A stretch of DNA of 63,760 nucleotides, counting the filler, from Stramenopiles sp. TOSAG23-6 (taxonomy: Eukaryota): assembly GCA_900128565.1 (NCBI GenBank). It is 9 parts of 9 records of this genome, joined end to end, with 100 filler letters (N's around TTAATTAATTAA, not from the genome) between each part and the next. Parts side by side here need not be neighbours in the genome. Positions count along the whole stretch, not along the records: positions 1 to 11,584 come from LT636256.1; positions 11,685 to 23,231 come from LT636257.1; positions 23,332 to 34,752 come from LT636259.1; positions 34,853 to 46,267 come from LT636260.1; positions 46,368 to 57,782 come from LT636261.1; positions 57,883 to 59,278 come from LT639120.1; positions 59,379 to 60,773 come from LT639121.1; positions 60,874 to 62,267 come from LT639122.1; 1 more part is not named here. One strand, given 5' to 3'. The translations under genes and the position numbers were made by a program. This document shows, piece by piece, positions 8,127-61,939 of this stretch (position 1 is its first letter; the number at the start of each line of letters is the position of its first letter). Below the pieces are notes generated by a model. It was given only the letters and a program-made list of their open reading frames with translations. It was not told where the DNA came from and did not search any database.

Positions 8127-11100
8127 ATGACGTCATTAGTAGGTCATACGGTGGTAATAAAACCACCCTCTTCTTCACGTTTGTCTTGTCCAACGATACA
8201 AAACGAACAAAATGAACAAAAAGAAATGGCGAAACAACAAAACCATCGAGTTGGAGCTGTAATTAAACATGACATTGAAAGGAATCTATTATATGTCATA
8301 TATAATAATGATACTTCTGGATCTGTCTTGTACAATCCTGCTTACATTGAAGTCAACAACTCACCCACTCTTGAAGACATTTTAAGCCACACTGTGAATC
8401 GTGACGATCCAACTACAAAAAAACAAAAAAATGAAAAATTGCAAAGATTAGCTTCTGCTTTATTGACAAATGAAAACATCAATGTAGACAATACACTTTC
8501 TCAAGCACTTTCTATTGTATCATATAAAGAAAGTAATGGAGAAAATATACTTGGTAGTGTTGTTGATATTATATTAGAGAGTTATTGTGATGATATGTGG
8601 TTAAGTAGGAAAAATAGTACGGCAAGGGTTAGGGTTAGTGACGTACATTCACTGGAAAAAGAGAAAAAAAAAATGCAAAACCCTAACCCTATCGCCAGTA
8701 TATCTTCCAGTGGTACTGATGATGATGATGATGATAATAATAATAACATGGATGAAAATAGTAAACAAAGTATTCAATATACGCAAAATAATTGGTTATC
8801 ATCCGCAAAGAGAAACGAAAATAGAAAAGAAATTGATATTTTTTCAAAATTGAATTTTGAAAAAACATCTGAAAAAGAAATTGAAAAAACATCTGAAAAA
8901 AAAAGTATTACAAAAAATGCTGTTCGTGGTCCTGCTGGACCTTCTTTTCATACAATGGATATATATAACGATAAACCTATACCCAAAACAACAAATATGA
9001 CAAATATAAAAACAAATAGAACAAAAAAAAAAGAAAAAAAAATGTCTTTAACAAACACGAAATCTTTGGAAAGTCTTTCGAATCCATTTGNACCGTCTTT
9101 TCCTATACAAAACTCTCTATATAAAGAAACCCTAACCCTAAATGAAAGAAATGAAAGAAAACGAATATCACCGTATACAATAAATACGGAAACAGTACCT
9201 ACTAGTCACTATTTAGGAATAGATAAATATCATTCCATTGTAACAAACCCTAACCCTAGTACTTTGACAGAAACAAAACACGAAATATCTGTACTCTATC
9301 AAAATAACCCTAACCCTAATACAAGGACCAATGAAACTGTCAAACATAAACAACAATTTCGTGTAGGAAAACCATTCGATAAAGGCAATAAAGGCAAAAG
9401 TGTTTTTTCAACCACAGCATCAAGTGTTTTACAAGATTCAATGTACCTAAATAACCTAAATAGTACGACTAAAAGTATACAAGATATGTTAGGTACAAAT
9501 TTTGGTACAAAAAAAATAAATTCGAAATTGAAAAAAAAAAAAAAAAGGGAACCCTAACCCTAGTACAATATTTTTAAAAATTCAAAAAATTCAAAAGACA
9601 TATTGTTAATAAATGAACGATATGAGCGAGATAAATATATTATTGAACATGGTACAATCATAGTAAAATTTGTTTTTCAACTTCCTTACAAAAATGTTGA
9701 AATTGTGAAAATGAAGTTACATGTACGTGTTTCATTACGAATTTCAAATTTAGTTTTTTTATACGAAATTTTCTACGTAACAAATTTTTTTAGATTTTTT
9801 TTGGAATTTCAAATTTATTTTTTTATAGGAAATTTTGTACGTACGATTATTTTTGAATTTGTATTCTATACTTTTTCATTACGAATTTAATTTTTTTATT
9901 GAATGTTTGGGGGTTGATTCATAAATAAGATTTTTTTTTTTTTTGATATTTGATATTTGATATTTGAAATTTGAAATTCGATTAAAAATTAAAAATTAAA
10001 AATTAAAAATTAAAAATTGTAAACCTAACAAAAAAATTTAAATGTTTTACATATAGTCTTATACTACATGACAANCACTGGTCTACACAATATTATTTCA
10101 TCCAATTTATTGAAAAATTAACTGAACAATATTTTAACTATACAAATTCAGTACCTAAAGAAAATTCTCAAATTTGTCTCCACTATGAAGATAGGGTTGG
10201 GGATTGGATNCGTATTCCTGGATTTCGTGCTTTTTCAATTGCTGTAAATGAAATTCGAAATAAAATGATTAAAAAAATAGAAAAAGCATATTTTAAAAAA
10301 ATACAAAGTGATTATTTAACAATGAATTTAAATATAGATCATATTATGGAAGANTCTTCATTGGTTATATTTGTTTCAAATAAAGAAGAAGAGGATAAAA
10401 AACACGAAACACATGAAACACATGAAAAACACGAAAAACAGTCAACCACACAAATTCTCCCACAAAACCAACAAAATCAACAACAAAATCAACAACAAAA
10501 TCAACCTATGCATTGGCAACGAGGTGAATTATTAGGTAAAGGATCATATGGAAAAGTTTTTTCTGCATTAGATTGTACATTTTCATGATAAATTTTTACT
10601 ATTCATTTTTTTTTTGTAGTACATTTCGTACCTAACAAAAAAAAATTTTAATTTTTGAAATATTTTTTCACAATATTGTAACAACTGGACGACATTTTGC
10701 AGTAAAACAAGTAAGTTTAGAAAAAGCTGGTATACAATCTTCAAAACAGGTTTGTGCGCTTGAAAAAGAAATTTCTTTATTATCAAGGCTAAANCATCCT
10801 AATATTGTCAGTTATTTGGGGTCACAAAAAGAATCAAAACATCCAAAATCAAAAAAAAGTGGAAAATTATATATTTTTCTGGAGTTATGTGGAGGTGGTA
10901 GTATAACAACTACAATTAAAAAATTTGGAGGGAAATTACCAGAATCAGTCATAAGACAATATACAAAACAGATATTATATGGTTTAGTATATCTTCATAA
11001 TTGTAATATGTATGTTTCCATTACTTTTATTATTTCAAATTGTATAATTTTTTACACGAAATATTTTTTTATTTTTTAATTTTTTTTTAAATTTTTTTTA

Positions 11101-11584
11101 GAAAATAATACTAGTATATACTAAAGAAAACACAACGAATTGAATATATTGTTGTACAAAACATTGTACATAGAGATATAAAAGGTTCAAATTGTTTAGT
11201 ATCGCGAAATGGCACAATAAAATTAGCTGATTTTGGTTGTTCTCGAGTTTTACATTCAAATAACCAATCTAAAGATGCAAGTCAATCTTTTGATTTGACG
11301 GCTGTTGGAACACCACAATATATGTACGTTTTCATTTCAATTTCGAATTGTTTTTTTTCGTACGAAATTTTGTACCTAAGATTTTTTTTTTTGAAATATT
11401 TTTTCATAATCCATGGCGCCAGAGGTGATGATGAAATCAGATAATTTACCTGAAAATAACCCAAATTTTTTTGTTATGAGTTTTGACGGAGAAGCAACAA
11501 TTGAAAAATTACGTAACAAATGTGAAACTATAAATACAAAAAATACAAAAAATACAAAAAATACAAAAAATACAAAAAATACAA
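8127..11584 (+). CDS. STE11/MEKK-like MAP3K with PB1-like segment; multi-exon, truncated by contig end
   Basis: [57 protein letters not shown] after splicing; YEDRVGDWI resembles PB1. Linkage to the 8127..9557 ORF is uncertain. Confidence 0.8.
10575..10678 (+). other. Family intron with probable GT-TG ends (104 nt)
   Basis: t|GTACAT...CACAATATTG|ta gives [15 protein letters not shown]; no AG or AT acceptor gives this frame nearby. Confidence 0.6.
11010..11164 (+). other. GT-AT intron (155 nt)
   Basis: at|GTATGT...ACAAAACAT|t restores [14 protein letters not shown]. Confidence 0.85.
11324..11414 (+). other. GT-AT family intron (91 nt)
   Basis: at|GTACGT...CATAATCCAT|g restores kinase GTPQY-M-APEV. 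Confidence 0.9.
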
Positions 11585-11628
11585 NNNNNNNNNNNNNNNN
11601 NNNNNNNNNNNNNNNNNNNNNNNNNNNN

Positions 11629-11640
11629 TTAATTAATTAA
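11629..11640. other. Artificial contig spacer; also at 23276, 34797, 46312, 57827, 59323, 60818, 62312
   Basis: Identical TTAATTAATTAA (stops in all frames) flanked by N runs. Confidence 0.95.
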
Positions 11641-11744
11641 NNNNNNNNNNNNNNNNNNNNNNNNNNNNNNNNNNNNNNNNNNNNTTTTCGTACGAAATTT
11701 TGTACCTAATAACAAAAATCTTGTACTATTTTTTCACAATACAT

Positions 11745-12397: not shown

Positions 12398-13820
12398 TTA
12401 CTCATTATTCGCCTTTGAAGTCCATGCAACAAGCCACTTTAAATTAGTAAGTAAATATTTTAACGCAAAAGTCCATTTTTGCCAGTCACCTAATTGAATT
12501 GAGTAGCCTCCTATTTTATAATCCTTAATTTGATACGGCATATGAATGGTACGATCAACACGTGCCGCATATCGACCAAGTTCATCAAGACAGGCAAGAA
12601 AAGCAACCATGTATGGTGAAAAAAAACTTTAAAAAAAAAATTGTTAGATACAAAATTTTCTTAGTACACTCAAATGAAGTACACAATTAATTAGGGTTAG
12701 GGTTAATGAAAACAAACATTCCTCGATTATATGCACTTTTACCACGCCAACCACCATCCCAATATAGAGGATTGTAGTTACGCTCATCACCAATACGACT
12801 CACTCTAGAATACGATCCTTTTGGTATAATTCTAAATTTGCTAAATTTAAAATTCAAATGACTTTTAGCAATAGTTGTCATTAGTACAGCTGCCTGACCC
12901 CAAGCCGCATTAATTTCAGCAAAATCCACAAGTTGTGTCGGAAGCCTACCTAATCTGAATGTGTTAATTGTACCAAATGGACCCGAATGCCATATATAAA
13001 AAGCATCATTATTTACATTCGTTCTTTTAAGTTGTAATAATTTTTCATCCAGGCGTTGCTCCTGAAGTACCAGTGACCTCAACTCTTGGGTATCACAATC
13101 CAATTGAAGTTCCCAGTTGCCTGTTTTTTCCCAATATTTTCTGGATGATATTTTTAGTTTTTTTGTCTTTAATTTTTCTATTCTTAATTCATTTTCAGTT
13201 TTCTCTACTTGTAGCGTTACTTGTGACACTTCTTTTTTCATTCGTTCCAATTCGAGTCGAAGTTCCGCCAGAGAGAAAGAAGAAAATTCCCGAGACTTTG
13301 TTTTTGTTTTTTCGTTCGATGCCTTTGCTATATTACATATAGTTGAACTGTTATCACTGATATCTACTTTCTCCAAAGATTTCATAAAGTTTAGATATAA
13401 ATCACGCTCAGCAAGAACTTCTTCCAACTCTTTTTTTACTCTTTCTTCTGAATTCATACTGCAGCGAGCACACAAAGGTTGACATTCCACGGGATCACTT
13501 GCTAATGGAGAACAAAACCTTGCCAGGCTACACAGAGCACTCAAGGAACTCTTGCTATCATAAGTCAAAGAATGTATCATATCATCAGAATCACTCCGTG
13601 TTGCGTTATGCTCTACAGTCCCATTATTCCCACTCGTTGAATCTTTCAAAGAGCCAGCCTGGACAAACTTCCGAAGAGCGCGGAATCGATCATTAAATGA
13701 TTCTTCAGGTGGTAATAGAACTAATGGGTAGCCGCAACATTGACAGGCAGGGTCCCAAGAGGATTTATCCCAAGCCACTTCAAAATCTACCGGTGGAACT
13801 ACTTTTTTTGAGTCAACCAT
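12398..13820 (-). CDS. ATG6: Beclin-1/Atg6; 2 exons
   Basis: QPLCARC, LKRTNVNNDAFYIWHSGPFGTINTFRLGRLP, EINAAWGQ, AFLACL, WTFALKYLLTNLKW. Confidence 0.95.
12609..12717 (-). other. GT-AT family intron (109 nt) containing a telomeric dimer
   Basis: at|GTTTGT...CACCATACAT|g restores YNRG-M-VAFLACL. Confidence 0.85.
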
Positions 13821-14276: not shown

Positions 14277-15858
14277 ATGGCGTCCAAAGTTCTTGGAAAT
14301 AGTAGAGGTGTTGGTTCATTGTGGAATCCAAATTCGTACCACTGGGAAGAAACAAATCATACAAAGTTCTCTATACAACTTCTTGAACACCTTTTCAAGT
14401 CTATTTCAATTGACTGTGGCGACGCGACGTGTCACATAAAGGAGGTTAGATACGTACGCGGTGATTCAGCAGTCAACATTCGCCGAGGGAAAAAAATTGC
14501 AATATTTGAGTTTGAAGCCCAGTTGCGATGGGAAGGATACTCAAAGTTAACCAAGAAAAAAAGTAAAGGCACAGTTGATATACCTTCAATTGTCCCTGAA
14601 GATGTTGAAGATGACGAATTTGAAGTTCATATATCTGGTGACTCTGGACCAGCTGCTACACTCATGCGAGATAAAGGAAGACGTGCAATTTACGCGGCGG
14701 TCAGAAATTTTCTCAAACGTTTAATGAGTATTGGTAATGATCATGCTGCAATAATAGCAGACAAAAGTCGTCGCATTGAAGCAAAAAAAAAAACAGATGA
14801 AGCAATACAGTTAAAAGGTAAAGAAAAATTAGCAATTGAAGAAAAAATACGTCAACAGGAAGCAGAAATCCTTGGTGTGTCCTCAATGGAAACAGAACGA
14901 AAAGCCGCTCTCCTTCCTTTGAAAAAAACAGTGAAACAAAAAAGTAATCCTAATCCGACTACCATTAAACAAAAGAAAACCCTAACCCTATTACCACCAA
15001 CTCCACCTGAAAATTCTCAAGACATTGGTGATAAAATCTCTACAATTTCGATAGAAAATAAAGCTTTTGTAGCTGCTCATTCGGCTGAATCCGCTGCAAG
15101 TAAATTAATAAATCCATCTCCACTTTTTGCAACCAAAATATCTCAAATTTCCCCAACAGAAAAAACAGAAAAAACAGAAAAATCATTTCAGCTTGTACAT
15201 TTTCAAAATTAAATTTCAAATTATTTTTTTTTCATAGTAAATTTTGTACCTAACAAAATATTTTACAAAACAAAAAAACAAATATTTTTTTCCAATACAT
15301 GGAAGTCAGTGGAATGAAAGAAGTTTTCATTGGGAAAATGCCGATATCACAAAATGGGCTATTCAGACATTAAGAAAAAAAATTTGTAATATATCAAGCC
15401 CTAACCCTAGTCAAATATCAGTCACAAAAATTGAGAAATTGGAAGGTACAGCAGAATTTGCCTCAAGAAAAGGAAAACAAATAGTTTTATTTGAGTTTAT
15501 TATAGAAGCCAGTTGGAACGGGAAATTATGTGATGGTAGTGGAAATATACTCGTTTCTACAAATGGAACACTTACCTGGAGAGAGTGTGCCCCAGACAAT
15601 TTAGATCCAGACGATATCCATATAAAATTTTGCAGTGAAAATTCTTCAAATGCTATAAAACGGCTAGAAAATATCGCTTCTGTAAAATTACGCGCTAGTT
15701 TGTTACGTTGTGTTTGTGAATTAGAAAAAGATATGTATTTTGAATTTTTTTTTCAATTTCGAATTTATTTTTCGTACGAAAATTCGTACCTAACGATTTT
15801 TTTTTGAAATATTTTTCCAAAATACATACGTAATGGGAAATTTAGGATCTCTGAGTAA
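14277..15858 (+). CDS. Protein with two Aha1 N-terminal (Hsp90 activator) domains; 3 exons
   Basis: WNPNSYHWEE...RRGKKIAIFEF and WNERSFHWE...RKGKQIVLFEF; introns 15195-15300 and 15735-15827. Confidence 0.8.
15195..15300 (+). other. GT-AT family intron (106 nt)
   Basis: ctt|GTACAT...TCCAATACAT|gga gives FQL-GSQWNERSFHWE. Confidence 0.85.
15735..15827 (+). other. GT-AT family intron (93 nt)
   Basis: Full consensus; splicing gives LEKD-I-RNGKFRISE*. Confidence 0.7.
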
Positions 15859-15959
15859 ATTTCCTAAAAAGATCAGATCGCGCTCGCTCCTGTAAAAATG
15901 GAGCGATATAAACCGGTAATTTCGAAATTTCTATTCAAATTCTTTAGGCGCCATTTGTA

Positions 15960-16845: not shown

Positions 16846-16937
16846 GTATGTTTTATATGAATTTTTTTTTCAATTTTTTTTCATACGAAATTTCGTACCT
16901 AACGAATTTTTTTTTGAAATATTTTTTCACAATCCAT

Positions 16938-17108
16938 CAACCGTCTAAGAGAGCATTACAATATTTAGCAAGAAAAAAAAAACAACAAAAAAAAAGGAAA
17001 GAACTACAAGATACTGTATTTTTTCATCATTCATTTTAATTTAAATTTAAATTTACATTTAAAAAAATTAAATTTTTTTTTTTTTTATTTTATAAAAAAT
17101 TTTTACCT

Positions 17109-17139
<31 letters not shown>

Positions 17140-20100
17140 CAATATTGTCCAAAATATATATGTACCAAAATGTTATATTTAATGCAAATCTTGAAAATTC
17201 TCAATTATGCCATCAAAATTTTAATTCATTTACCGACGGTAGTTTTGTAGCAAATAAGCATAGGCTGGACACACTAAATGATCAACGCGTACGTCATTAT
17301 ATTTATTTTTTTTAAGTACGATATTTTGTACCTAATTTTTAAATTTTATTTACATTTTTTTACATTTTTATACGAAATTTTTTTAAATTTTTTTAAAATT
17401 TTTTAAAATTATTATATTTTAAATATCAATCGAAAATTTTTTTAAAATTTTTATATATTTTGTATATTTCTTTACAGAATATATTTTATCAGATAAAGAT
17501 ATGATTGAAATACAACAATTAAAAGCAGAAGAACGAGAACGAGAAAAAATTTGTAGGTTTAAAAAAAAAAAATCGTACGAAATTTTGTACCTAATGATTT
17601 TTTTTTAAAACCCTAACCCTAACCTAACCTAATACATAAATGAACAATACAGTAGCTCAAGCGTTAAAAGATGCTCATAATAAGCATATTTGTCGTATAC
17701 GTGCTCAGCGAATTCGAGGTAAAACTTCTGGTGAACGAAATTGTTTTTTAGGTATTTTAATTTTTTTCATACGAAATTTTGTACCTAACATTTTTTTTTC
17801 AAATTTTCAATTTTAAAATGATTCTAGAAAATGTTTTTTTATTTCTACAATAATAATTTTTTATTTTTGTACAAATTTAAATGTAAATTTAAATTTAAAA
17901 TTCATTTAAAAAAAAAATTGAAATATGTCAAACCATTGCAGGTATATCAAAAGATGGTTCTGGACAAACCTGGCAGAGTCTTTCTGAAACACGAAATCAA
18001 CAAAAACGAAATCAACGAAAGTATAGGTACAATCATAATAATAACACACCTAAATTTTTTAGACAAACGAAATCTTCATTATTAAGACAAAAACGATACC
18101 AAAATGACCAAAATAACAAAGAAATGACGTCACTGTTGATGTCTCACAGCAGGTCTGTCAAAAAAAATCCAAACTCATCACGAAATACTAAAAAAACTCC
18201 AAAAACGTTACGTAAAAAATTACGTAGAAAGAAAAATGAAGAAGAAACAAATACAACAAATACAACAAATACAACAAATACATCGTTTTGGTATAAGCAG
18301 CGAAACACAAAAATAAGTGAAAGTGAAAAATCTGTAAATTTTAGAAAAAAATATGAAACTTTTTTGAATTCTGAAAAAAATTTTGAAAAAAATTTTGATA
18401 ATAATTTTGATAATAATATTGAGGAAAGACCTCAATGGTCTCTTAGTAAAAATAATATGAAAAAAGTATCCTATAGTAGACCTCATATGGCTCCTGAGCG
18501 TGACACAAATGAAATTTTGGGTATACAACAAAATGATTCCAATTATTCTGGAGATGTGCGTTAAAAAAAAAAAAAAAAAAAAAATTTCATACGAAAATTT
18601 TGTACCTAACCAATTTTTTTATTATTCAAAAAAAAAATATTTTTCACTCTATACAATGTAAATATTACAGAACGTCATAATAGCGACATCAAAGTATTTA
18701 CTGCTCCAATGGGTGATTCTACAACTGGTACAACAAATTCATATAAAAATATAAAAAAGTCAAAAAATAATAATTTTGGACAAAATGATAATTCAACAAT
18801 TTTGTATGAAAATTTTGTACCTAAGGAAAGTTTTCCCGATAAACACGAATTCTTGAATGGTTTAGAAGAGTCTCTTGAATCTATTGATCATGATGTAAAC
18901 CCTAACCCTAATGAAAGTTGGGTCTTTCATTCAGATGTACTAGATGGATTACACGAAATATCAAAAGAAGAAGAATTTGTAGAAAACCCTAACCCTAACA
19001 AAAATATTCAGACTACAAATGACTCATTACACGAAATATCAAAACAAGAAGAATTTGTAGAAAACCCTAACCCTAACAAAAATAATCTGACTACAAATGA
19101 CTCATTACACGAAATATCAAAACAAGAAGAAATCGTTGAACATTTGAGTGAGTTTTTTTTCAAAATATTTTTGAAAAACCTTGAAAAAAAAAATTCGTAC
19201 ATAATTTTGTACCTAACGATTTTTTTTTTCAAAAATATTTTTTCACAATGAATTCTCGAAATCATCAAAAATTGATATGAATATGAAAATATGGCAAAAA
19301 GTGATTGATACTGCAAAGAACAATACTAGTGGTAGACCGGGTAACGTATTCTTAGAAGACATCTCCAAAGAAAATATTGATTTTACAATGATTACAGAAT
19401 TATTACAATTACAAAACAATTTTCATACAAAAAAATATACACCTACCCGTACGTTGTTTATATACAAAATTTTGTAAAGAAAAAAAAAAAAATCTAAAAT
19501 TTTTTTTCATACAAATTTTCATACCTAACATTTAAAAAAAAAAATCTAAAAAAAATCTAAAAAAAAATTTTTNATACAATATTTCATACCTAACATTAAA
19601 AAAAAATTGTATATATATTATATACTCTTTAGGTATTTTACGCATCAATCATCCATACGAGCAAAATATCATTGGATCTTCAGAATCGACTTCAATTATT
19701 GAGTTACAAAACAAAACAAATCATAATGATATTCAAATGTTATTTTATGGTGGAGATAGTGAGGAGTTGACATCTATTGCGAGATTTGGTTTTTCATCAT
19801 TACACGAAAAACACGAAATGTCTACTAACCCTAACCCTAGTCACCCACAAAATGGTGATGCTTCTATAATTATCTGTTCTGATGATATCAATATTGCTGA
19901 TCAATTTCATAAATCATTACCAGAGACTCATTCTGTTGCATTACCTGGCCATTGGAAAGGTATAAAATTAACTGCCACGTGGCGAACACTATTAGTCGCT
20001 GTTGCGCCTGGTGAAATTGTAGACACAAACCCTAACCCTAGCTATACAAAAGGTTTAAAAGGTGTAAAAAAATGTATAGAAAAAAATGACTTGACGAATG

Positions 20101-21748: not shown

Positions 21749-23150
21749 ATGTATATAATGTTAAATATACAACTTCTGCTTGGTGTATTCCTCGTATTAA
21801 ACATCACTACAATAAAAACAATAGTAGATGCGACGTGTAGTGATTGTTCTTGTTACCCATACTGTATGCCGTGGGAGGAATCACGGCCATATTATAATCG
21901 AAACCCACAAACAATTAACAAATATATGGGTACGTTTACTAATTATGGTTCAAATCTCACCGAAATAGTGAAACAAGTCCTCATTCTTCCTTATATTGTA
22001 CCAATAGAACCTGTGTCATCAATGACTGAAGACGATTGGCTAACTCATTATTTATCACTCCAAGGCATAGATATCTCATTACGACTTGGTGAGCTTAGCA
22101 ATGATGATATCACAGCACGAACAGAATTGCGTAATAAATACATTACAATGTATTCAAATGATACCAAAATGAAGTCTGGATTTTTAGATAAAAATGATGC
22201 CGGTGCAGATTGGAACGTTTCTCCTATTTTACCCAATCTTTTGTATAATTCTACTTTTGTATACGGAATGGCTAATTTTAAAGCAGGGCAATGTGTGCAA
22301 AATCAAAATTGTGGTGAAATAACAGATAGAAAATCAGATAATGATTTTATTGATGGTTACATTGTTGATAGTATGTTTTTATTATATATTTTTTTTATTT
22401 TTTTTTTTTTTTTTACAAATGTAAAACTAACATTTTTTTTTTTTGTATGATATTTTTTTACATTTCATGTGATATAACTGTAGCTAAAATAGATTCAAAT
22501 ACGGGAGACATTATTAATATATGGCAGTATGGTTCACCACAGAATGATATAGCAGTAGCTATTCTTGCAGATTCAGGGGTATCAAATCGAACAAAAAATA
22601 ACTCTGACAAAAATGATATAAAAAATATGTATGTTTTATTTTTTTTTTTTTTTACCGAAAAAAAAAAATCAATTTTTTTTTTCATACGAAATTTTGTACC
22701 TAACAAATTTTTTTTTTATAGAAAAATTTTGAAATATTTTTCCAAAATACATAGATAACGAAAATACAAATAGACCTCTACGTTCATGGGATTTTGATTG
22801 GCAAAATAATTTAGTATGGATTTTTGGTACAACAGAATCTCCACGTATGTATGTTTTAATTTTTTTTTTACTATGATTTTTTTTTTTATAAAAATTTTGT
22901 ACCTAACGAATTTTTTTTTCAAATATTTTTCCAAAAGTCAATTGCACCAACTTTTTTTGAAAAGGGTCAAAAACCTACGAAAATTGAACGGAGTAAAGGG
23001 CGTCCAAAAGGGAATAATAATCACAATGGATGTAATATTCCTTTTGATCCAAATCCTCTTGTTACTCATGATGATTTATTATATAAAGTTAAAAATGGGG
23101 AAAATCCAGGAACAATGGTTGATATTGAAACAGACATGGGAAATGTCTAT
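21749..23150 (+). CDS. Secreted SBBP-like beta-propeller protein; multi-exon, truncated by contig end
   Basis: Signal peptide; DITVAKIDSNTG...WQYGSPQNDIAVAI and VWIFGTT after introns 22371-22468, 22629-22752 and ~22845-22941. Confidence 0.65.
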
Positions 23151-24999: not shown

Positions 25000-27900
25000 A
25001 TGGTTCCTAATTGGATAAAAAAGGGAATACGAAAACGTCCTTACTCTGAAGTTGCTGGAGTTGTGAATGGAACTCTTCCTCAGGAAAGTGGACCTCCCAT
25101 AACGCCCGATCATATGTCCATCAAAGAACTATCCACGAAATCGTCAAGTGCGATACAAATAAATGATGAAAATGTAAATTCTCGAAATATTCAGGTGGTT
25201 CAATCTAAGAATGTGTCTAAAAAAAAAGGAAAAAAGCGTAAAAAACAGACAGTCGAAGAAAAGAAAAATTTCGCCGAACGCATGGCAAAAGGCAGAGCAG
25301 AAAAACGACGCAAGCAAGCAGCGCAGACAGCAATTGATGAATTAAACAAAGACGTCTCTGAAATTGTAGATGAGAGTGAAGTAAATGAAGAAGAGGAATG
25401 CGTCGGTAATCGTAGAAGTTCGCGTTCTCGAGTATCCAGGTATATGCAAATTGACGGACAAACTGTTTTGAAAGCAAATAATTATACAATGGAACAAGGG
25501 GAACTTTCAGTGTATTCGCGTGAAGCTCGAGGTACGTTTGATGCATCCTCAAATGATATTAAGAGACCTGTTCGAAATGCATATATGCTATTTATGTCAG
25601 AATTTGAAGCCCCAACAGAAGACAATAGACCTTATATACAGCAAGCTTCGGAAACATGGCAAGGTCTTTCAGATGCTAAGAGAATGGAATTTAAACGCCG
25701 TCACCAACAAATGGAAGAAAAATGGTTAGAAACGGTTGAAAATAATAAAAGAAAAGCTCAAGAAAAAATAGCTGCAGAAAAATTAGCCGATCAAAATAGG
25801 CAAATTTTAGCAAATAAACAACGCGACGAAGAATGGCAAAAACTAAATGAAAAACGCAAAATGAGTAAAGCTGCAAAAATGAAGGCACAAGGTAAAGATC
25901 GTGTGTTTGATCTGAGTACTATAGAAGGTCGTCGCCTTAAGCATAATAAATCAATGAAAGCTGAACGAGAGTCAGTTATTGCTCTACGGAATACAGTTTT
26001 TGCATATTATCGAAATAATCTCAAAGGATTTACTGAAAATATCCCTCATGCCCTTTCAACATCTGAGTATGATGTAATGACGGCAGGGCTCGTGGATACT
26101 GAAGGCGCCCCATGTGTATCTCAACCAAGTATTATTGTTAATGGTACTATGAGAAATTATCAATTGAAAAGTTTGGAATGGCTACTTTGGATGTATGTAC
26201 GTTTTCATCAGAAATTTCAATTTTATTTATTTTCATACGAAATTTCGTACCTAACAAATTTTATAAAAAAAATATTTTTTCACAATATATGATCATGGTA
26301 TGAATCCAATTCTCGCTGATGAAATGGGATTAGGTAAAACGTTGCAGACAATTGCATATTTAGCTGCATTAAAAGAGAGGGGCGTGTGTGGTCCACATGT
26401 ACGTTTTCATTATGAATTTCTAATGTATTTTTGTTTCATATGAAATTTTGTAATTAATGATTTTTTTGATTTTTTTGTTTTTCACAATACATCTTGTTGT
26501 TGTGCCATTGAGCGTAATGAGTTCATGGATGAGTGAGTTTCGTCGTTGGTGTCCATCGCTACGTGTAGTTCGCTTGCATTCACAAGACAAACATGAAAGA
26601 ATGCGTTTGCGTACATTTTCAAAATTGAAATTCGTTTTTTTTTTTATCATATAAAATTTTGTATCTAACCAAAAAAATCAAATATTTGAAATATTTTCCT
26701 ACAATATATGTACCCATGTAATTGCCGATGTCAAGAATTATGACGTCATTGTAACTACATATGATTATGTTAAAGTGAAGGAAATGAGACACACTTTGAG
26801 TTCTCGCATAGCTTGGAGATGTCTTGTACTTGACGAGGGTCACAAACTGAAAAATGATGAAGCTGAAATTAGCCTGGCAATGCGACGTGTTAATTGTCAA
26901 TCAATACTATTATTAACTGGAACTCCTTTGCAAAATAATTTACATGAGTTATGGTCTCTATTGAATTTTTTATACCCTAAAATATTTCCCGAATCGATTG
27001 CATTTGATGACGCATTTAGTTTAAATGGTTCCCAGATGCAAATTAAACGAGACGTATTGTCAAGAGCACATCATCTTATGGTTCCTCTAATGTTACGCCG
27101 TGTGAAACATGAAGTCGAAACTATGCTTCCTCCAAGAGTTGAAACAATTATCAAATGTCCATTGAGTGAAATGCAGAATTTTTGGTATAAACGTTTGTTG
27201 TTGAAGAATTCTGCCATGTTACAAGGATTGGAAGAAAGACAAATTTTAAAAGAGAAGGGGGAAAATGTCGGACAAAACTCTGGTGGTGAATGGAAAAAAT
27301 TGAAAAGTTTAATGATGCAACTTAGGAAATGTTGTAATCATCCATTTCTATTTCCTAATGTTGAAAATACACTTGCAGATGCTGATGAATTGATCAACGA
27401 AGATGGTGCTGCAAATGAATCAATCGTAAAAGCATCTGGAAAAATGGAGAACTTGGATCGTTTGCTTACTGGGTTGTTTGCAAATGGTCATCGTGTAGTC
27501 ATATTTTCACAATTTACAAGATTTTTAGATATTGTAGATGATTATCTTCAACTTCGTGGCTATCAATTCGCAAGACTAGATGGAGGAACAAATCGCGTAC
27601 AACGTATGGTCGACATACAAGAGTTCAATAAACCTAATTCTCCATTAGTTGCATTCATTATGAGCACAAAAGCAGGTGGTTTGGGTGTAAATCTTCAGAC
27701 TGCTGATACAGTTATTCTTCTAGATAGTGATTGGAATCCACAAAATGATTTGCAAGCGATGGCTAGAGTTCATCGTATTGGTCAGACTAAGTTGTGTCAT
27801 GTATATCGTATGGTAAGTTCCGGTACGATGGAAGAACGAATTGTACAACGTGCTCAAAAGAAATTATTTCTAGATACAATGGTCAATCGTGGTTCCACCT

Positions 27901-29547
27901 CTAATGCTAAAGCGGTAGAAAAATTAGGTAGCAAAGAACTTCTTGAAGCTTTGTCCTTTGGTGTAGAGCGATTGTTTGACAAGAAAAATGATAATGATTC
28001 ATTGGAGAAAGATAGATATTTGAGTGAAAGTGAGGTAGCTTCTATAATTGACCGTTCAAAAACAAAAGAATCTGTGAAAATCTCAGTTAATAATGAAGAT
28101 GATAATACTAATGATGTATCTGAAAGTTCATCTACAGCAACTACGATGAAATCTTCGTCAGTGAGTCTACAAAGTGGTCAGCGCCAAACTCTTGCATCAT
28201 ATGATGAAGTCGCACCAATGACAAAATTAACATTTTTTCAAGGACAAGATTTCCGTGCTGGGGGTGTTGCTACATATAAAGATATGGCAGATGCTTGGGT
28301 CGAAGAACTTAAATCTAAGCGGAAAGCGCGTGAAAGAAAGTCTAGATATATGCAAATTGATGGACAAACTGTTTTGAAAGCAAATAACTATACGATGAAT
28401 CAAGGGGAACCTTCTGTGTTTCATCAAGAAAATAGAAAAAATAAAGACGAACAAGTAGCTATCGTTGCTCAAACTGGTCCACAACGTGCTGGTCGTGATT
28501 ATGAGCATGAATCACAGTGTTTGTATTGTTGGGACGGTGGTGATTTAGTGTGTTGTGATGGGTGTCCTGCTTCTTTTCACTTAGAATGTTTAGGATTATC
28601 AAAAGCTTCTTTAGATAATATGAAATTTCAATGGTACGTTTTCATATTGAATTTCAAATTTTGTTTTTATACCAAATTCTGTACCTAACGATTTTCGGAT
28701 TTTACATTTTTTTTCACATTACATGTATTGTCCTCATCACTCATGTATAGAATGTGGTCGCAAGGCTGCTGCGGTAGGTGGTCTTATTTTCCGATGTGAG
28801 GTTTGTCCTACTAGTTATTGCGAGGATCATTTACCTGATATTGCACGAAATAACATTACAAACAAATGTAAAAGATTTCAAAATCTCGGCCAAAATCATC
28901 CGAAACAAGCTTGTTTTGTGCTTTGTTCTGAAAAATGTCAAATCTTCCACAAGGCAACAAATGGTGGTTCTAATTTAAGTATTTTTAATACTTTGGAAAA
29001 TAAGGAGAAAGCAATGCGGAACGCAGAACGAGATTTAAAGAAAGAGAAACAGAAAAAAACTCGTGATGCGTTGGCATGGCATAAAACAAAATCAGACGAA
29101 CGCAAACAATGGTATGGCAACAGCACATCTGATAAATTTGACAGTACAAATAGTAAAAATAAATCGTCTGAGTCTTCATTGATAAAAACAGAAGAAAATA
29201 CAGAATGTTATAAAAAAACTCGTTCAAAATCATTATTAAATGAAAATCGGTGGTTCAAAGGTATGCGATTAAAAGTTGATTATATGGGTAGACAATATTC
29301 CGCTAAAGTAGTTCGAACATCTAAAACTGCTTTGTATGTAAAGTATAGTGATGGATCACAAGAGGATATCTTATGGGAAGATGTCGAGGAGCGGGTTATT
29401 AAAGTCCCTGTAAAAAAGAAATCTGAAAATGTCATTTTGCCTCCACAAGACGAAATTAAAAATGAAGACAATCAAATAAATTTCATTTTGCCTCCACAAG
29501 ACGAAATTAAAAATGAAGACAATCAAATAAGTATACACGATTTATAA
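25000..29547 (+). CDS. SNF2-family chromatin remodelling ATPase with HMG box, PHD fingers and Tudor-like C-terminus; 5 exons
   Basis: [11 protein letters not shown] (HMG); [95 protein letters not shown]. Confidence 0.93.
26197..26290 (+). other. GT-AT family intron (94 nt)
   Basis: tat|GTACGT...CACAATATAT|gat gives [23 protein letters not shown]. Confidence 0.9.
26399..26492 (+). other. GT-AT family intron (94 nt)
   Basis: cat|GTACGT...CACAATACAT|ctt gives [10 protein letters not shown]. Confidence 0.9.
26611..26709 (+). other. GT-AT family intron (99 nt)
   Basis: c|GTACAT...TACAATATAT|gt gives [23 protein letters not shown]. Confidence 0.85.
28634..28724 (+). other. GT-AT family intron (91 nt)
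   Basis: tg|GTACGT...CACATTACAT|g gives FQ-W-YCPHHSC. Confidence 0.9.
29433..29529 (+). repeat. 45-bp tandem duplication at the SNF2 3' end
   Basis: cattttgcctccacaagacgaaattaaaaatgaagacaatcaaat x2 ([15 protein letters not shown]). Confidence 0.9.
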
Positions 29548-43981: not shown

Positions 43982-46212
43982 ATGGAAGTTCAAGTCCATC
44001 CAGAACCACCACTTGAAAATGATAGCAACTTGAACTCGTCATTACCAAGTCTTCCCTTCTACCCCCCTCGCCGTGACCTGCTCATTGGTTTTTTTTGTTC
44101 TTTTCTTTATCTAACCGTGCTCCTAAGCCTCGAAATGGGTTGTAACGCAGATGGGGGAGAAATGAGTTGTAAAATTCCACTTCGTGTCTCACCCGACCAG
44201 GTCCTCTTTTCAAGTGGCAAGGCACAAGACAAAGCACATGAGGCTCTGAGCACGAAAACAAAAATTAAAACTGCAGAGCCATGATCCTATAGTGGTAAGG
44301 TTGGAATTAAAATACAGATGTGGAATATCGATTTTTCGAGCTTTACATGGCAGATTCATGACAATAAAAAAGAGTTTAGTCGTGTGTTTTCAGCCCCAAC
44401 GTTGCCCTACCGAACTCGATGCGACAGCCATAGTTGCAGAAGAGCGAGTGATGGAGCATTAGTGGGTGTAGATGGGGTTTTCCCAAAGGCAGTCACATTC
44501 AATGCTGAAGCTGCTTTAATACAGAGTCAGAACTCTATCAGCGACGGATGGAAGATTCTGGATGAAAATTCCGAAGATTTTTTTGAAATGGAAAACGAAG
44601 TGAAACTATGGGAGGAAAATGAGGAAGCTCTGTATGTTTTATTTTTCTTCCATTTCGATTTTTTTTTCGTACGAAATTCCGTACCTAACAAATTGTACAA
44701 AAAAAATATTTTTACACAAACATGGAGTCTGAACTTTCGAATGAGTCTACAGAACGCGATTGTTTCAGTTCAGATATGATGGTGTTTTCAACACTTCAAC
44801 AAAGTCCTGTACCATGCAACATCGGCTTCGGATATGTAGAACCGAAGGAAATGAAAATATTTCCGACTACAATTACACGAAAAGAGTGCGAAGGAACAGA
44901 TGAACCACGTATGTTTTAGTTTTTTTCAAATTCGATTTTTTTTTCGTACGAAATTTTGTACCTAACGATTTTTTTTAAATATTTTTCCAAAATACATGCG
45001 CAACTTTCACTACAGATCCAAATGAACAACATGGGACTAGCTGCAAATGTTCATATGACCCAATAGCCGTAAGCAATGGTTCAACCGACTACAATATGTG
45101 GTGTACACCACTAGCAGCTCTCTCTGAACGAGGGAAACCAGTGCAGGATTTTTTTTTCACACCTGAAGGTTTTAAATATGGGGCAGCAAATAAGTATTGG
45201 ACAGATGAAGATCAAATTGCATATGAAAAAGATTATGAACTTTATGAAAAAAAGTTACAAGCAGAGGCAAAACAGAAATGTGGTACAATGTGTGATGACG
45301 AAGGAACATGTGCTGCAAGTCAATGTCAATGGGATTATGATCTGCTCGGTGGCATATCAATGGATCCTTTATTTGAGTATTGTGAACGCTCAGCTCCGTA
45401 TCATTTTATAGGGCAAAAAGCCAATGCAATTAGCAATCACTGGTTTGGTTTCTTTGCAGTTTGGACGGTTTGTTTTGGCATGAGTGATTTGTTGAGAAAG
45501 TCGAATCAATTAGAGATCAAAATCATTTGCGCTTGTTCAGCTGGTTTGGTGGTTGTGTTTATTCTCTGTCTAATTATTTTTGGCGACAAAGGTTTTGGTG
45601 GAGCCGTTCACATCTCCCTCTTTGGGACACAAATAATTGGAGTTTTACTTAACGCTGTTGGGGCAGCGGTAGGATATGGAACGAATAGAGATCCTAATAT
45701 TATTACAAAAACATATAAAAAAGGCGAAATAATTTCTTCTTCTGAGATGGTTACATTGAACAGTACTAATGCACCTGCTGAGGAAGAGCAGCAAAAAACA
45801 GTGATAATTGATACTGAAGAAAAGAATGTTGCAGCAACACGAGTCGCACTTGTAGCGAATATAATAGATATAGAGGCAGGTGATGTTGTCAAAAGTGATG
45901 TGTTGTATTTGTCAAATCATCTTCGTGACTGTCCGTTCCTAACACTGCAGTTTGGACTTGCTCTATTTATGACAGACTCGAGCAGTTTTTTATTTCATGC
46001 TTCGTTGACACAGTTAGGTCAGCGTTTAGATGTATTGGCTGTCTACTGTGTCGTTCTCACACCATTTGCATATAGTCTCCTTTCATTAATGAATGTACCA
46101 CCCCCTACTGTCACTAGTAGGAACCAGCCCAAACTTGTTCGTTTCCTTCGTTGTCTTACTATATTGATGCCATTGACTCTTGCATTTGTATTTGCATCTG
46201 CAGGAAACAAAG
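43982..46212 (+). CDS. Multi-TM protein with CREST/ceramidase-like motif; GT-AT introns 44632-44723 and 44909-44997; truncated
   Basis: YCE...QKANAISN, SSFLFHAS..QRLDV; both splices join ORFs in frame; in-frame TGA at 44282 unexplained. Confidence 0.65.
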
Positions 46213-46426: not shown

Positions 46427-48207
46427 ATCATTTACAGATGTTTTAATTCCCTGTAGCTGTGGTGCCCTATATCGAATTTCTCCCGTAAGACTATGCTTGT
46501 AATAATAAAATCCAGTATACGGCGAATATAATTTTTCCCATATGGAAAGCAAAAGATTCCGCATGTATTTTAGAANAATATTTCAAAAAAATCATTAGGT
46601 ACAAATTTCCGTACGAAAAAAAAATCGAATTTGAAAAAAAATAAAACATACATATTACGTCGAACAAGTTTTCTTCTATACATTCCTTGTAGTTTAGAAA
46701 TGGAAACAAACTCTCGCTCTTCTTCTGTCATATCTTCCCATTTAGGTTTTGTTACTTTACTTTCATTCATCTCATTTTCACCCTTTTCGTTTTCATCATT
46801 TTCATTTTCATCATTTTCACTATCTTCATCTATTATAGGTTTACCCAGATAATTGTAACGAATACCATCATATCCACCCACAGGTGCGTAAATTGTAACA
46901 TCATTACCAAAGTCATCATATTCATTTTCTTCGTTCAGAGCGAGTTTAGAAAATCGCTTTTCAATTTTTTCTAACTCAATTGAACGTAGACGTTTTTCAT
47001 TGTTGTGTACTACTTCGTCCTTTAATAACTTCGGTTTATCCCATTGTGCTTCACCAGTTTCATGATTTTGGTAATAATATGCTTGGTGCCATTCGTCCCA
47101 TTCCTTGGAAAATATTTTATTTAGCATTGCTTTGAACATCTTTCTTCCTCTTCTAGCTCTATACAATGTTTGGATTCTAGATGCAGCAGCATCAATTCCA
47201 GGTGTACCTAATAACTCTTCTAACTTTGCAGCAGCTGCTCTAGCTTCTTCCAGTTGTCTACGTCTTGAGGATTCTTCTCGACGACGCTTTCTTTTCTGCT
47301 GTCTTTCCCATTTTTTATTTTGCATTGTAGTAAATGAATCGATTCTACCCATTCGCGCTTCTCGTTCTGCATGCGAAAACTCAAAATGATACATAGCATC
47401 TGATGCGCACTGTTGTGTGATTATATTCGATGACATTGCCGCATATGCGGCTCTTGCAGCACGCATTGCAGCCTCCGCCTTTTGCTTTGCAACTTTTTTT
47501 TTACGGAATTCTGCAAGTCGTTCTTTCCTTGCCGCTTTTGCTCTCTTCTTTGCCTCTAATTGTTCTGGCGTGATTACATTTTTTTCTTTGTTTAATTTTC
47601 TTATAGATCTTCGATCTTGTTCTAAGCGTAACCTTTGTTTCTTCTTTACCTGGAACTTTTGGTATTCGATAATAGACACTGTGCCACTTTTATCCTCGTC
47701 AAAGCGTGCAAAGTCTTTAGCCGTACCAAGACCAGCTTTTATAAACTCGTCTTTATCTAGTTCACCACTACCATCATGATCAATCGCATTAAATTTATCT
47801 TTATAGCCTGCATTGTGCTTTTTCAAGTGTTTTTCTAGACGAGCCTGCATTTCAATACGTTTCTTTCGTGTACTCTCTAATTTCTCCTCTGCCTCTTTGA
47901 GTGTCTCATCGACAGATTTACCAGCGTCTGTTCCAGCTTGAATTTTTAAAGTGGTCATTTCGATATATTCACGAAGGTCTATAGTACCACTTCCGTCAAC
48001 ATCAGCAGCATCAAAGTCTTCGCTTGTGCCTAATCCTGCGGCCAAAAATTCGTCCTTTTCAATTCCACCACTGCTATCTTTATCAAATTCAGCAAAGTTG
48101 TTGGTTTCTTTATTTCGACGCTGTCGTTCAGCTTTTATCTTTGATTTGCGAAGCTTAGTCTTTTTATGACGGGCCATTGCAGCGACTTCTTCTTGTGTCA
48201 GCTCCAT
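46427..48207 (-). CDS. EF-hand, IQ and WW-like domain protein; GT-AT intron 46563-46651; truncated
   Basis: DKDSSGGIEKDEF-type loops; IQTLYRARRGR; YYYQNHETGEAQWDKP; spliced second unit WEKLYSPYTGFYYYKHSLTGE. Confidence 0.8.
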
Positions 48208-56763: not shown

Positions 56764-57689
<926 letters not shown>

Positions 57690-59609: not shown

Positions 59610-60719
59610 ATGGTTTGGAGTATCATTAGGAATCTTCGTAGTGTATTTTTCTTCATTGTTATGCTTGTCACGCATAGCACAAGTAGCAGTAGCAATTGCA
59701 TCTCAATCGTTTGGCCTCGACCTTTTTCAGTCATGCTGAATCCATCAATTGTCATTTTGCGTGTTGCTGGGGATGAACAACTCCAATCGTGTGCTAATAT
59801 ACAAAGTATATGCTTGAATTTTGACCAAGAAGATGCACAAAAGTGTATCGATGTTCCATTTCGTCGTGATGGTGAAGCAATTAGCGTCCAAGTTGTCCTA
59901 AATCACCTGCGTTTTGGAACGATTGTCCTTTCAGTTGAGGCTTTTACACAAACTCTACCGAACATTGAAAAGCAGATATCGGACGACGACTTGCTCACTA
60001 GAATATTTGAGGTGCTTGACCCATCTACTAATTCTGCTGCTCAAATACGTATTCCTTTGGTGCATACAGCTGCTGTCTTTAATTCTATTCAACCTNNNNN
60101 NNNNNNNNNNNNNAATGTGACTTTTTTGTCTCCTATGGAAGGTGAAGTTGTTTATGGTGCATCAGTGGAAGTTATCCTCCTTGTCACTGGTTTTGGTTTT
60201 GATCAAAATGTACTTTTATCACTGCCTCGAAATATTGAAGTGTGTTTCGTACTTCTTAATTATAAAAATCATGAAAATCATGACAAACGAATAAAATATG
60301 AAAAATATGAAAAATATGAAAAACAAATACAATGTGTACGTCGTATTGAAATGGCTCATAGTGTAGCCTTGATTGGACTTCTACCTGGTCCTAATGTATT
60401 AAAAGCCTTTTTGCGTACTATAAATACTCGTGAAGAGATTGGTCATTCAACAACAATAATTTTTGAATCGGAACAAATTGACAAAAAAAATATTTTTTCA
60501 CNNTGACAAAAATAATATTTTTCAAACTGAAGAGACTTCAGAAACTGAACGGGAAAAATATTCTGCATTGAGCCCAACAAACAAAGCCACAGTTTTAAAT
60601 TATGCTGAACCAATACAGTATTTAAGTACAAAATTTCGTATGAACAAAAAAGACATTGTCTTACCCGATATAACAATACTCACACCAAAACCATTTTCTA
60701 TTTTGAGTCCTGAAAATGT
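59610..60719 (+). CDS. Secreted hypothetical protein with repeated 'I/F-x-SP' beta domains; partial
   Basis: Signal-like N-terminus; long ORF broken by Ns; ends at a family donor. Confidence 0.55.
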
Positions 60720-61025
60720 GTACGTTTTCATTTCAATTTCGAATTTAGTTTTTTTTTCGTACGAAATTTTGTANNNNNNNNNNNNNNNNNNNNNNNNNNN
60801 NNNNNNNNNNNNNNNNNTTAATTAATTAANNNNNNNNNNNNNNNNNNNNNNNNNNNNNNNNNNNNNNNNNNNNATGTACGTTTTCATCATGAATTTCTAA
60901 TTTATTTATTTTTTTCATACGAAATTTTGTACTTAAACAAAAAAGATTTTTTTTTTTTTGACATGTATGTTTTCATCATGAATTTCTAATTTATTTCGAA
61001 TTTGACATATTTTTTCACAAGACAT

Positions 61026-61939
61026 GGAGCATCTTGTCCAGTAGGCATTGGTGTAAGTTGTAGTGCCGACCGTCAAGCTTGGGGGAAGATCACTGAAGAG
61101 GGTGTGTTTATTGAAGAATTAGAACGTGACCCTGCTAAATACTTGCCTGATATTGATGAAAAAACTTTACTTGGTGGTGGTGATGTTCACGAGGTGAATT
61201 TAAATGATGGCATGGATAAAGTATTATTGAAACTAAATGAATTACCAGTCAAATCTAGAGTATCTCTCACAGGCACGTTAGTAGTTGCTAGAGATATTGC
61301 ACATGCTAAACTTTTGGAAAGATTAAATAAGGATGGAGAGTTGCCACAGTATATGTACGCTTTCATTATAATTTATTTTTTTCCACTAGACTTATTTTTT
61401 CATACCAAAATTTGTACCTAATAAATTCTACATTTTTTTTTTTCACAATATAGGCGTGACCATCCTGTTTATTATGCAGGCCCTGCGAAAACTCCTGAAG
61501 GAATGGCATCTGGATCATTTGGTCCAACAACTGCAGGACGCATGGATAGTTATGTTGATGCATTCCAAGCAGCTGGCGGTAGTAAAATTATGCTTGCAAA
61601 AGGAAATCGAAGTAGCCAAGTGACTCAATCATGTTTGTTCTCTCATTATGATTTGTTTTTGAAATATTTTTTTTCATTGAAATTTTTGTACCTAACAAAA
61701 ATATCATTTTTTTTGAAATATTTTTTCACAACTCATGTAAAAAGCATGGCGGATTTTATTTAGGATCTATTGGAGGACCTGCGGCAGTTTTGGCTATGAA
61801 TTGTATTAAAAAAGTCGAAGTATTGGAATATGAAGAATTAGGTATGGAGGCTGTTTGGAAGATCGAAGTAGAGAATTTTCCTGCCTTTGTCGTGGTTGAC
61901 AATAAAGGAAATGATTTTTTTTCTAAATGGCAAGCGTAA
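61026..61939 (+). CDS. Class I (Fe-S) fumarate hydratase, C-terminal part; introns 61345-61453 (GT-AG) and 61633-61736 (GT-AT)
   Basis: [64 protein letters not shown]. Confidence 0.95.

Follow-up and report, generated by a model that had tools for sequence, protein, structure and literature searches.

How is the 3' end of an intron defined in genes in which the terminal AG is hardly ever used? This question is raised by a stretch of 63,760 bases from Stramenopiles sp. TOSAG23-6 (assembly GCA_900128565.1; this whole stretch of analysed DNA is referred to as the window), in which one stereotyped intron-like element, identified by repeat finding and by motif listing, occurs on both strands at about one copy per 1.6–3 kb. 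It had been noted in the initial annotation of this DNA that the acceptor appears to be set by its position after a motif, with nearby AGs ignored, and this observation is largely real: a dense intron family is present in which a long box ends with the acceptor, an AT in place of AG. We conclude that coding sequence is interrupted by these elements, and that each would have to be removed exactly, with the GT as its first and the end of the box as its last bases. It is probable that they are spliceosome-type introns of one abundant family, in which the 3' splice site would be the end of a box of ~16–20 nucleotides (nt) rather than the first AG. The evidence for this is drawn entirely from the DNA sequence, from reading frames and from homology of the encoded proteins.

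The family character of these introns is clear from their anatomy. In the 5' to 3' direction the element opens with GTAYGTTTT(CAT), followed by sequence rich in A and T and by a small hairpin; next come GTACCTAAC, a T-run and CA(C/A)AATACAT, after which the exon usually begins with G, and the consensus obtained from the alignment is GTAnGTTTTCATT..AAATTT...TTTTTTC(G/A)TACGAAATTTTGTACCTAAC(A/G)A-T-run-(G)AAATATTTTTTCACAATACAT. The 29 curated introns, to which the counts out of 29 refer throughout, have lengths of 89–194 nt (median 99) and begin with GT in all cases (GTATGT in 10, GTACGT in 8, GTACAT in 4, GTTTGT in 3, GTATTT in 2 and GTGAGT and GTACGC in 1 each), with a 5' consensus, GTAYGTTTTCAT, that reaches to about +9 to +12; the motif AAATTTYGTACCTAA is matched 22 times in the 63.8 kb. 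When 25 copies are aligned with MAFFT, the mean column identity is 54%, and the T-A-A of CTAAC is invariant. The 6-bp hairpin (GTACGA/TYGTAC) adjoins a nearly invariant CCTAAC, located 32–59 nt from the intron end in most copies, and all 29 introns contain a CTAA that lies 20 nt or more before the end. In the T-run, a T is present at each of the positions −16 to −11 in 21–27 of the 29 introns, and the 3' box, as given by the counts at each position, reads A-A-T-A-T-T-T-T-T-T/C-C-A-C/A-A-A-T-A-C-A-T, with C in 19, A in 27, C in 18, A in 26 and A in 25 introns at positions −10 to −6. The 16-mer TTTTTTCACAATACAT (weighted score of at least 19 of 23) has 23 matches on the two strands, nearly all of them immediately 3' of GTACCTAAC, and five one-strand mononucleotide shuffles give 0, 1, 1, 4 and 2 matches, respectively. 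The CACAA pentamer alone is not enriched (189 observed versus 203 ± 12 expected). Eight of the 16 contig ends lie inside the element, as expected if its copy number in the genome is very high.

The boundaries of the element were assessed with a frame test, in which the 5' end was the GT opening the conserved block, the cut was made where the best-matching 3' box ends, and a junction was taken as in frame when at least 30 codons are open past it. Among the 37 candidate 5' sites examined, 26 have a best 3' box scoring at least 18 of 23, and for 22 of these 26 the cut at the box end is in frame, compared with 5/26 and 1/26 when the cut is moved by +1 and +2. The four failures concern 15735, where a stop is met after 9 codons in what may be a terminal exon; 16846, with its out-of-frame length of 92 nt; 17289, where the script chose the second AT of ATATAT and the first AT (17482) is in frame; and 60965, whose upstream exon lies beyond the contig. 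In the curated set, which includes three introns (17289, 17752 and 44632) positioned by eye on the basis of a known frame, the frame is kept at offset 0 by 27/29, at −1 or +2 by none and at −2/+1 by 6.

Removal of the elements also restores conserved protein sequences. In the class I fumarase gene, whose nearest solved structure is the fumarate hydratase 6mso (116 bits), the junction of the intron at 61355–61453 reads LPQY-M-RDHPVYY. Of 121 compared proteins (120 matches listed and one protein from the search with the Aha1 exon), 63 have P[QD]Y plus one residue and then K or L before DHPxYY (K in 61, L in 2), and the intervening residue is hydrophobic in 63/63. At the second fumarase junction (61633–61736) the spacing of the conserved block is the same as in the homologues. 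The SNF2 gene regains its motif across 26197–26290 and reads GPH-LVVVP across 26399–26492, and in the PHD finger the split codon TG|G provides the Trp of FQ-W-YCPHHSC (intron 28634–28724). The kinase junctions restore the HRD and APE motifs, with GTPQY-M-APEVM at intron 3. An ATG following the box is ruled out as a start codon, as the box lies inside conserved domains.

The bases at the end of the intron are as stereotyped as the box itself. The terminal dinucleotide is AT in 27 of the 29 introns (CAT 22, TAT 4, AAT 1), AG in one (61453) and TG in one (10678), and with A at −2 in 28/29 and T at −1 in 27/29 the end is as conserved as the CACAA block. Scanning downstream from CTAA clearly fails to predict the cut, which coincides with the first AG in 1/29, the first AT in 0/29, the first YAT in 1/29 and the first CAT in 11/29; the final 40 nt of the 29 introns together contain 134 ATs and 6 AGs. 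Therefore, an extended 3' element is required. Two AGs had been singled out in the initial annotation. With the first, at 17477, a stop is reached after 8 codons, and the AT at 17482 keeps ~41 codons open; with the second, at 22754, the stop is immediate, and the AT at 22752 opens 40 codons. The proposed 3' splice site box would be AAATATTTTTT-CA(C/A)AA-TA-CAT, its last T being the last base of the intron, with AT (as CAT or TAT) as the normal terminal dinucleotide and AG tolerated at the same position. The introns would be removed from the RNA by a spliceosome of the U2 type, with CCTAAC as the likely branch site, and a trans-acting factor, such as an altered U2AF-like protein or a small nuclear RNA (snRNA), may read the 3' box and place the last base. 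Position and the identity of CAT would then be two sides of one composite signal.

It had also been claimed that the cut falls at a constant distance after CACAA whatever the terminal dinucleotide, and that an extended 3' element or a ruler replaces AG scanning. The pentamers on which this was based are present as quoted, with TACAT and TATAT at many sites, TATTG at 10678, TATAG at 61453, CTCAT at 61736, TGAAT at 19253, TTTAT at 1190 (−), TATAC at 18654 and GTCAA at 22941, and the failure of the scanning rules bears out the extended element. A base-blind ruler, setting the site 5 nt past CACAA/CAAAA with the dinucleotide free (for example with a branch adenosine in CACAA and a steric setting of the cut), is weakly supported and appears unlikely. 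Such a ruler would accommodate the TG (10678) and the AG (61453), both in frame at the box-aligned position, the possible in-frame AA (22941) and AC (18654) at this position, and two unused AGs, one located 5 nt before the cut (17477) and the other 2 nt past it (22754), and it has a precedent in U12-type introns, in which the 3' site is picked by its distance from the branch site and several dinucleotides are tolerated. However, 27/29 AT ends, 22 of them CAT, are not predicted by a ruler unless all copies are young, and CTAAC is better conserved than CACAA. The constant distance fails in the intron at 44632–44723, where MAFFT places a 1-nt gap between CACAA and ACAT, such that the in-frame cut is at +4 and still follows CAT (the +5 cut meets a stop after ~17 codons), and the literal CA[CA]AA is found at −10 to −6 in only part of the family. 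The variable dinucleotide is seen as TG and AG in 2/29 introns, and the sites at 18654 and 22941 have in-frame AT alternatives, as the initial annotation allowed. For 18556 the AC (+5) and AAT|G (+8, 18657) ends are both in frame, with GTTAAA (18560)..TAT (18652) as a third option, and for 22941 the AT end at 22942 (+6) pairs with the 5' site at 22849, which is the better match (GTATGTTTT), whereas the +5 solution requires GTATGTATG. The kinase intron ending at 10678 (104 nt removed) is without any GT...AT solution; its alternatives require a 5' end of TT (10573, to the AT at 10676, same length) or TA (10576, to the same AT, 3 nt shorter). Homology gives no decision here, as the kinase homologues differ by one residue in this loop, and the contig carries single-N low-quality calls. 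The introns at 16846 and 17553, which do not fit the box-end rule, break the +5 rule too.

Several points weigh against the reading of these elements as spliceosomal introns ending at the last base of the box. The intron at 16846–16937 is 92 nt long, whereas 90 or 93 nt would be needed with flanking exons that share one frame, and the cut of 17553–17637 creates a TAA at the junction (17552/17638). The intron ending at 10678 ends with TG if the GT is kept. The assembly is fragmentary with many single N calls, no protein of the source organism, spliced or unspliced, was found in the searched collections, and no snRNA is found within the window. The branch site, the type of spliceosome and the trans factor are all putative. 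The reading frame fixes the intron length modulo three only and leaves the register free, and therefore the junctions were checked in conserved proteins; an AT...AC register would give an identical mRNA in 10/29 introns (those in which the exon ends with AT and the intron with ACAT). Register 0 (GT...AT) is favoured because the GT is invariant whereas the two preceding bases vary, because the Trp of the PHD finger demands a register of 0 to +3, and because the Met/hydrophobic position of the fumarase demands a register of 0 or +1.

It is extremely unlikely that the AT ends are artefacts, due either to faulty gene models or to mistakes in an assembly made from a single cell or at low coverage. 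The single N calls, the short contigs, the breaks inside the element and the frame problems in two introns would be in agreement with it, but the same end is found in 27 independent introns in unrelated genes and on both strands, and the conserved motifs are restored to the residue. In addition, the same structure is present in an independent metagenome contig (L014, reverse complement 644–747), unrelated to the window, where a like intron with the ends GT...CACAATACAT interrupts a different gene in frame. The pattern ACGAAATTTYGTACCTAA occurs at 17 metagenome loci, and the family intron is found in only two of these, L002 and L014. L002 (OJFB01010238.1; 1–150, 1040–1076) contains a DNA-polymerase-like exon with the 5' half of a family intron; past the branch box it switches to unrelated sequence with an adapter-like end and is probably chimeric. 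Seawater DNA metagenomes of another study share 21–40% of the words sampled from a 10-kb stretch of the window, and five seawater poly(A) metatranscriptomes share 5–13%; two small DNA runs of 2015, both from one organism and probably the source of the window, share 92–93%. These shares indicate only that the source organism is probably a marine microbe.

The 3' AG is among the most conserved signals of eukaryotic genes, being read by U2AF35 and then by the catalytic centre, beside the first G and the branch A. It is possible, and is proposed here only tentatively, that in a free-living marine eukaryote AU has taken the place of AG as the 3' site in essentially all introns, at the end of UUUUUUCACAAUACAU and ~35–50 nt downstream of the hairpin-flanked UACCUAAC. 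Such a recoding implies that the recognition of the 3' site has co-evolved at both steps, involving a U2AF35-like factor as well as the contact that the last intron base makes, by pairing, with the first G in the catalytic core. The upstream exon ends with AT in 15/29 and the downstream exon begins with G in 18/29, such that both junctions tend to AT|G, and this AT preference at the 5' exon ends hints that one recognition component has changed for both junctions. Neither the family motifs nor any set of introns dominated by GT-AT was found described in open-access papers and bioRxiv. If confirmed by RNA data, this would be a rare change to basic splicing rules, and a GT...AT lineage would be a natural experiment on how 3'-site recognition changes, showing which parts of the spliceosome have to change together. 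Such a lineage would also account for the failure of gene finders and spliced aligners that assume GT-AG on such environmental genomes; the source appears to be a common seawater organism, and its proteins are missing from the large protein collections that were searched. The family character bears on the spread of introns.

Further features of the element concern its internal structure. Conservation of the hairpin by pairing has modest support, as 81% of the hairpin cells are paired versus 76% after shuffling, with 5 double changes. In the copy at 43165 both GTACC half-sites are changed into GCACC, which is a better fit to a direct repeat than to a hairpin, and RNAalifold detects no consensus structure in the element copies. 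In the 29-intron table no covariation is seen between the GTAC/GTAT 5' ends and the 3' end. Duplicated modules are present at 60874–61025, where the 5' module GTAYGTTTTCATCATGAATTTCTAATTTATTT starts at both 60876 and 60965, and at 6500–6664 (−), where the hairpin and CCTAAC are duplicated. Telomere-like (CCCTAA)n/(TTAGGG)n tracts are located in or near introns at 17596–17632 (+), at ~12655–12690 within the intron at 12609–12717 (−) and at 9545–9562, as well as in L014 (reverse complement ~885–950); in 17553–17640 the CCCTAA repeats stand in for the T-run and the CACAA box, and directly past the TAA that splicing would produce there, an open frame starts with ATG and runs from 17640 onward. The element at 16846–16937 is itself open in the frame of the host reading frame (15948–17039), so that its retention adds 30 residues without a stop. 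The coordinates of the introns are listed in Table 1.

Table 1. Introns of the window, with their terminal sequences and the outcome of removal; positions are those of the window.
Feature	Position	Strand	5' end...3' end	Remarks
Kinase intron 1	10575..10678	+	GTACAT...CACAATATTG	Ends TG with GT fixed; in frame, 132 codons
Kinase intron 2	11010..11164	+	GTATGT...TACAAAACAT	Conserved kinase sequence restored
Kinase intron 3	11324..11414	+	GTACGT...CATAATCCAT	Restores GTPQY-M-APEVM
Intron 3' half at contig start	11685..11744	+	...CACAATACAT	Before RNA polymerase L-like exon
Aha1-like gene intron	15195..15300	+	GTACAT...CCAATACAT	168 codons open
Aha1-like gene intron	15735..15827	+	GTATTT...CAAAATACAT	9 codons to stop; last exon may be next
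Family intron, frame misfit	16846..16937	+	...CACAATCCAT	92 nt
Putative intron	17016..17159	+	GTATTTTTTCATC...CCAAAATATAT	144 nt; same-frame exons; by eye; presupposes exon 16938-17015
Intron	17289..17482	+	GTACGT...TTTACAGAATAT	AG 17477 skipped, AT 17482 in frame
Intron with CCCTAA repeats	17553..17640	+		ACAT 17637 cut gives TAA; first open cut 17640, AA
Intron	17752..17905	+	GTATTT...TAAAATTCAT	218 codons open
Intron, ambiguous end	18556..18657	+	GTGCGT...	TATAC 18654 (box-aligned) or ACAAT 18657, both in frame
Intron	19148..19253	+	GTGAGT...CACAATGAAT	
Intron without 3' box, ambiguous	19449..19632	+	GTACGT...	AT 19623 and AG 19632 both in frame
Intron	22371..22468	+	GTATGT...TACATTTCAT	95 codons open
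Intron	22629..22752	+	GTATGT...CAAAATACAT	AG 22754 gives stop
Intron, two solutions	22845..22942	+		GT22845..GTCAA22941 (box-aligned, AA) or GT22849..TCAAT22942 (AT)
SNF2 gene intron	26197..26290	+	GTACGT...CACAATATAT	Conserved motif restored
SNF2 gene intron	26399..26492	+	GTACGT...CACAATACAT	Restores GPH-LVVVP
SNF2 gene intron	26611..26709	+	GTACAT...TACAATATAT	658 codons open
PHD finger intron	28634..28724	+	GTACGT...CACATTACAT	Junction codon TG|G = Trp
Intron	37796..37890	+	GTACAT...CACAATACAT	
Intron past MORN-repeat exon	43165..43259	+	GTACGT...CACATTGCAT	
Intron	44632..44723	+	GTATGT...ACACAAACAT	In-frame cut = literal CACAA+4
Intron	44909..44997	+	GTATGT...CAAAATACAT	423 codons open
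Fumarase intron	61355..61453	+	GTACGC...CACAATATAG	AG at box-aligned position
Fumarase intron	61633..61736	+	GTTTGT...CACAACTCAT	Conserved fumarase block restored
Intron	501..622	-	GTATGT...GAAAATACAT	
Intron	1190..1282	-	GTTTGT...CACAATTTAT	
Intron	1472..1596	-	GTATGT...CAAAATACAT	
Intron	6261..6366	-	GTACGT...CATAATACAT	
Intron	6500..6664	-	GTATGT...CACAATACAT	Duplicated hairpin/branch module
Beclin gene intron	12609..12717	-	GTTTGT...CACCATACAT	CCCTAA repeats inside
Intron	39874..39963	-	GTACGT...AAACATTCAT	
Intron	46563..46651	-	GTATGT...TAAAATACAT	

The G+C content of the window is 27–39% over the 63,760 bases, and its contigs, of ~11.5 kb at first and then of ~1.4 kb, contain numerous single N calls and are joined by spacers of 100 bases (N44-TTAATTAATTAA-N44) at 11585–11684, 23232–23331, 34753–34852, 46268–46367, 57783–57882, 59279–59378, 60774–60873 and 62268–62367. 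With the standard code, the stop-to-stop open reading frames (ORFs) reach 834 residues, and their domains are those of common eukaryotic proteins (Arf, protein kinase, Beclin, Aha1, SNF2 with PHD, DIM1, MORN and class I fumarase). No tRNA, rRNA, snRNA or any other Rfam RNA is found within the window. The protein search with the kinase exon gives no match and that with the Aha1 exon one match (36% identity); the best match of the fumarase exon has 71% identity, and its relatives include molluscs, chromerids, Nannochloropsis and alphaproteobacteria. When the kinase ORF is compared with 1.84 billion representatives, the best match, to a tandem-kinase protein, has 47% identity. The Atlas neighbours of the Beclin protein are uninformative on lineage. 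Also present are 72-nt periodic repeats in an LRR gene (4853–5556), 42-nt tandem repeats in a Tudor/Agenet gene (36668–37003) and pure A or T tracts of 20–60 nt in intergenic regions and at a contig end (207–290, 826–880, 17108–17135, 18563–18585 and 23175–23231).

The element can be compared with several known systems. Ciliate-type internal eliminated sequences (IESs) are bounded by TA and absent from somatic DNA, and a variant genetic code is common in their hosts; in the euglenid type of intron the borders are not conserved and the two ends pair. It is very unlikely that the elements of the window are non-spliceosomal, either as nonconventional introns of the euglenid/diplonemid type or as IES-like DNA elements. 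Their ends other than GT-AG and their repetition as a family with internal palindromic GTAC motifs would fit such an origin, but the GT in 29/29, the GTAYGT-like 5' sites, the CTAAC box and the T-run are spliceosomal signals, and the standard genetic code fits the long ORFs. End-to-end pairing is weak (−5.4 kcal/mol for a copy's own ends, −4.8 for re-paired and −3.6 for shuffled ends), which together with the lack of an RNAalifold consensus structure rules out an end-pairing structure. No per-copy direct repeat is found beyond the consensus, the microhomology at the junctions being 2.31 nt versus 2.32 nt after re-pairing (2775 of 5000 permutations reach 2.31), and target-site duplications of individual copies are ruled out by this control; the tendency of both junctions to AT|G is, by the same control, no per-copy duplication. 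A marine diplonemid origin of the window is likewise unsupported: the relatives of its fumarase are mixed, with no tie to Euglenozoa, and kinetoplastid enzymes are no closer to it than mollusc, chromerid or bacterial ones. Introns that are not GT-AG are reported to be numerous in marine diplonemid single-cell genomes, and euglenid and diplonemid introns share with the window introns both this property and the occurrence in marine single-cell genomes; they lack conserved borders and have paired ends (PMC6221363, PMC12621601), unlike the window introns with their invariant GT, U1/U6-like 5' site and conserved boxes and without significant pairing of the ends.

Introner elements, known from Micromonas, Aureococcus and Amoebophrya (PMC7789003, PMC3879977, PMC11282704), resemble the family in that unrelated genes carry numerous copies of one intron sequence, in that the assembly is broken at such copies and in that a palindrome lies within them. 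Unlike the introners described in PMC7789003, the window family is without detected terminal inverted repeats or direct repeats of individual copies. The Amoebophrya splice sites vary relative to the hairpin and have no dominant dinucleotide, whereas the boundaries in the window are fixed and GT...AT is dominant.

When compared with U2-type introns, the window introns have the GTRNGT-like 5' site (GT in 29/29, with predicted pairing to U1 and U6) and a putative branch motif of the YNYTRAY/CTAAC type with a pyrimidine tract (CTAA in 29/29). U2-type introns end in AG, normally the first one past the branch site; in the window the terminal dinucleotide is AG in 1/29, and the cut falls at the first AG past CTAA in 1/29. 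Rigid U2-type signals are found in Saccharomyces (GTATGT and TACTAAC) and in Trichomonas and Giardia (GTATGT with the 3' motif ACTAACACACAG). The introns of the window are like these in their GTAYGT 5' site, their CTAAC-type box and a long 3' motif fixing the acceptor. They are unlike these in ending with AT, in having the CTAAC box ~32–59 nt upstream and not fused to the 3' site, and in their hairpin, T-run and dense spacing (~one per 1.6–3 kb).

It is distinctly unlikely that the family is a transformed and massively expanded U12-like class of the minor spliceosome with co-evolved snRNAs, as in Physarum. Hallmarks of such a class would be the extended and conserved 5' site, the branch-like box and the ends other than AG. 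The similarity of CCTAAC to TCCTTAAC and the formally possible AT...AC register (10/29) would agree with such a class, and the AG and TG ends are at the aligned position, as expected for a site chosen by distance, yet 27/29 ends are AT and the cut at 44723 follows CAT. The 5' motif [AG]TATCCTT, with the defining TATCC, is found in 0/29, and the CTAA box is 32–59 nt from the end in most copies, and not TCCTTAAC at ~10–20 nt without a pyrimidine tract; the introns of the window have a long T-run, untypical of the U12 type, and GTAYGT and TACYTAAC agree just as well with the U2-type signals of yeasts. The analogy is nevertheless instructive. In Physarum, the minor system is expanded, with the branch motif at −12 to −10, and GT-AT, a known rare U12-type boundary, makes up 17% of the non-canonical boundaries (10.1101/2020.10.12.336362); the long 5' consensus GTAYGTTTTCAT differs from the +6T form given there, GTATCTTT, mainly at +5. 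U12-type introns and the introns of the window have in common an extended 5' site, a 3' site tied to an upstream motif at a narrow distance and a tolerance of ends other than AG. They differ in the TATCC core, in the box distances and in the T-run, and GT-AT, which in U12-type introns accounts for a fraction of a per cent, is the rule in the window (27/29).

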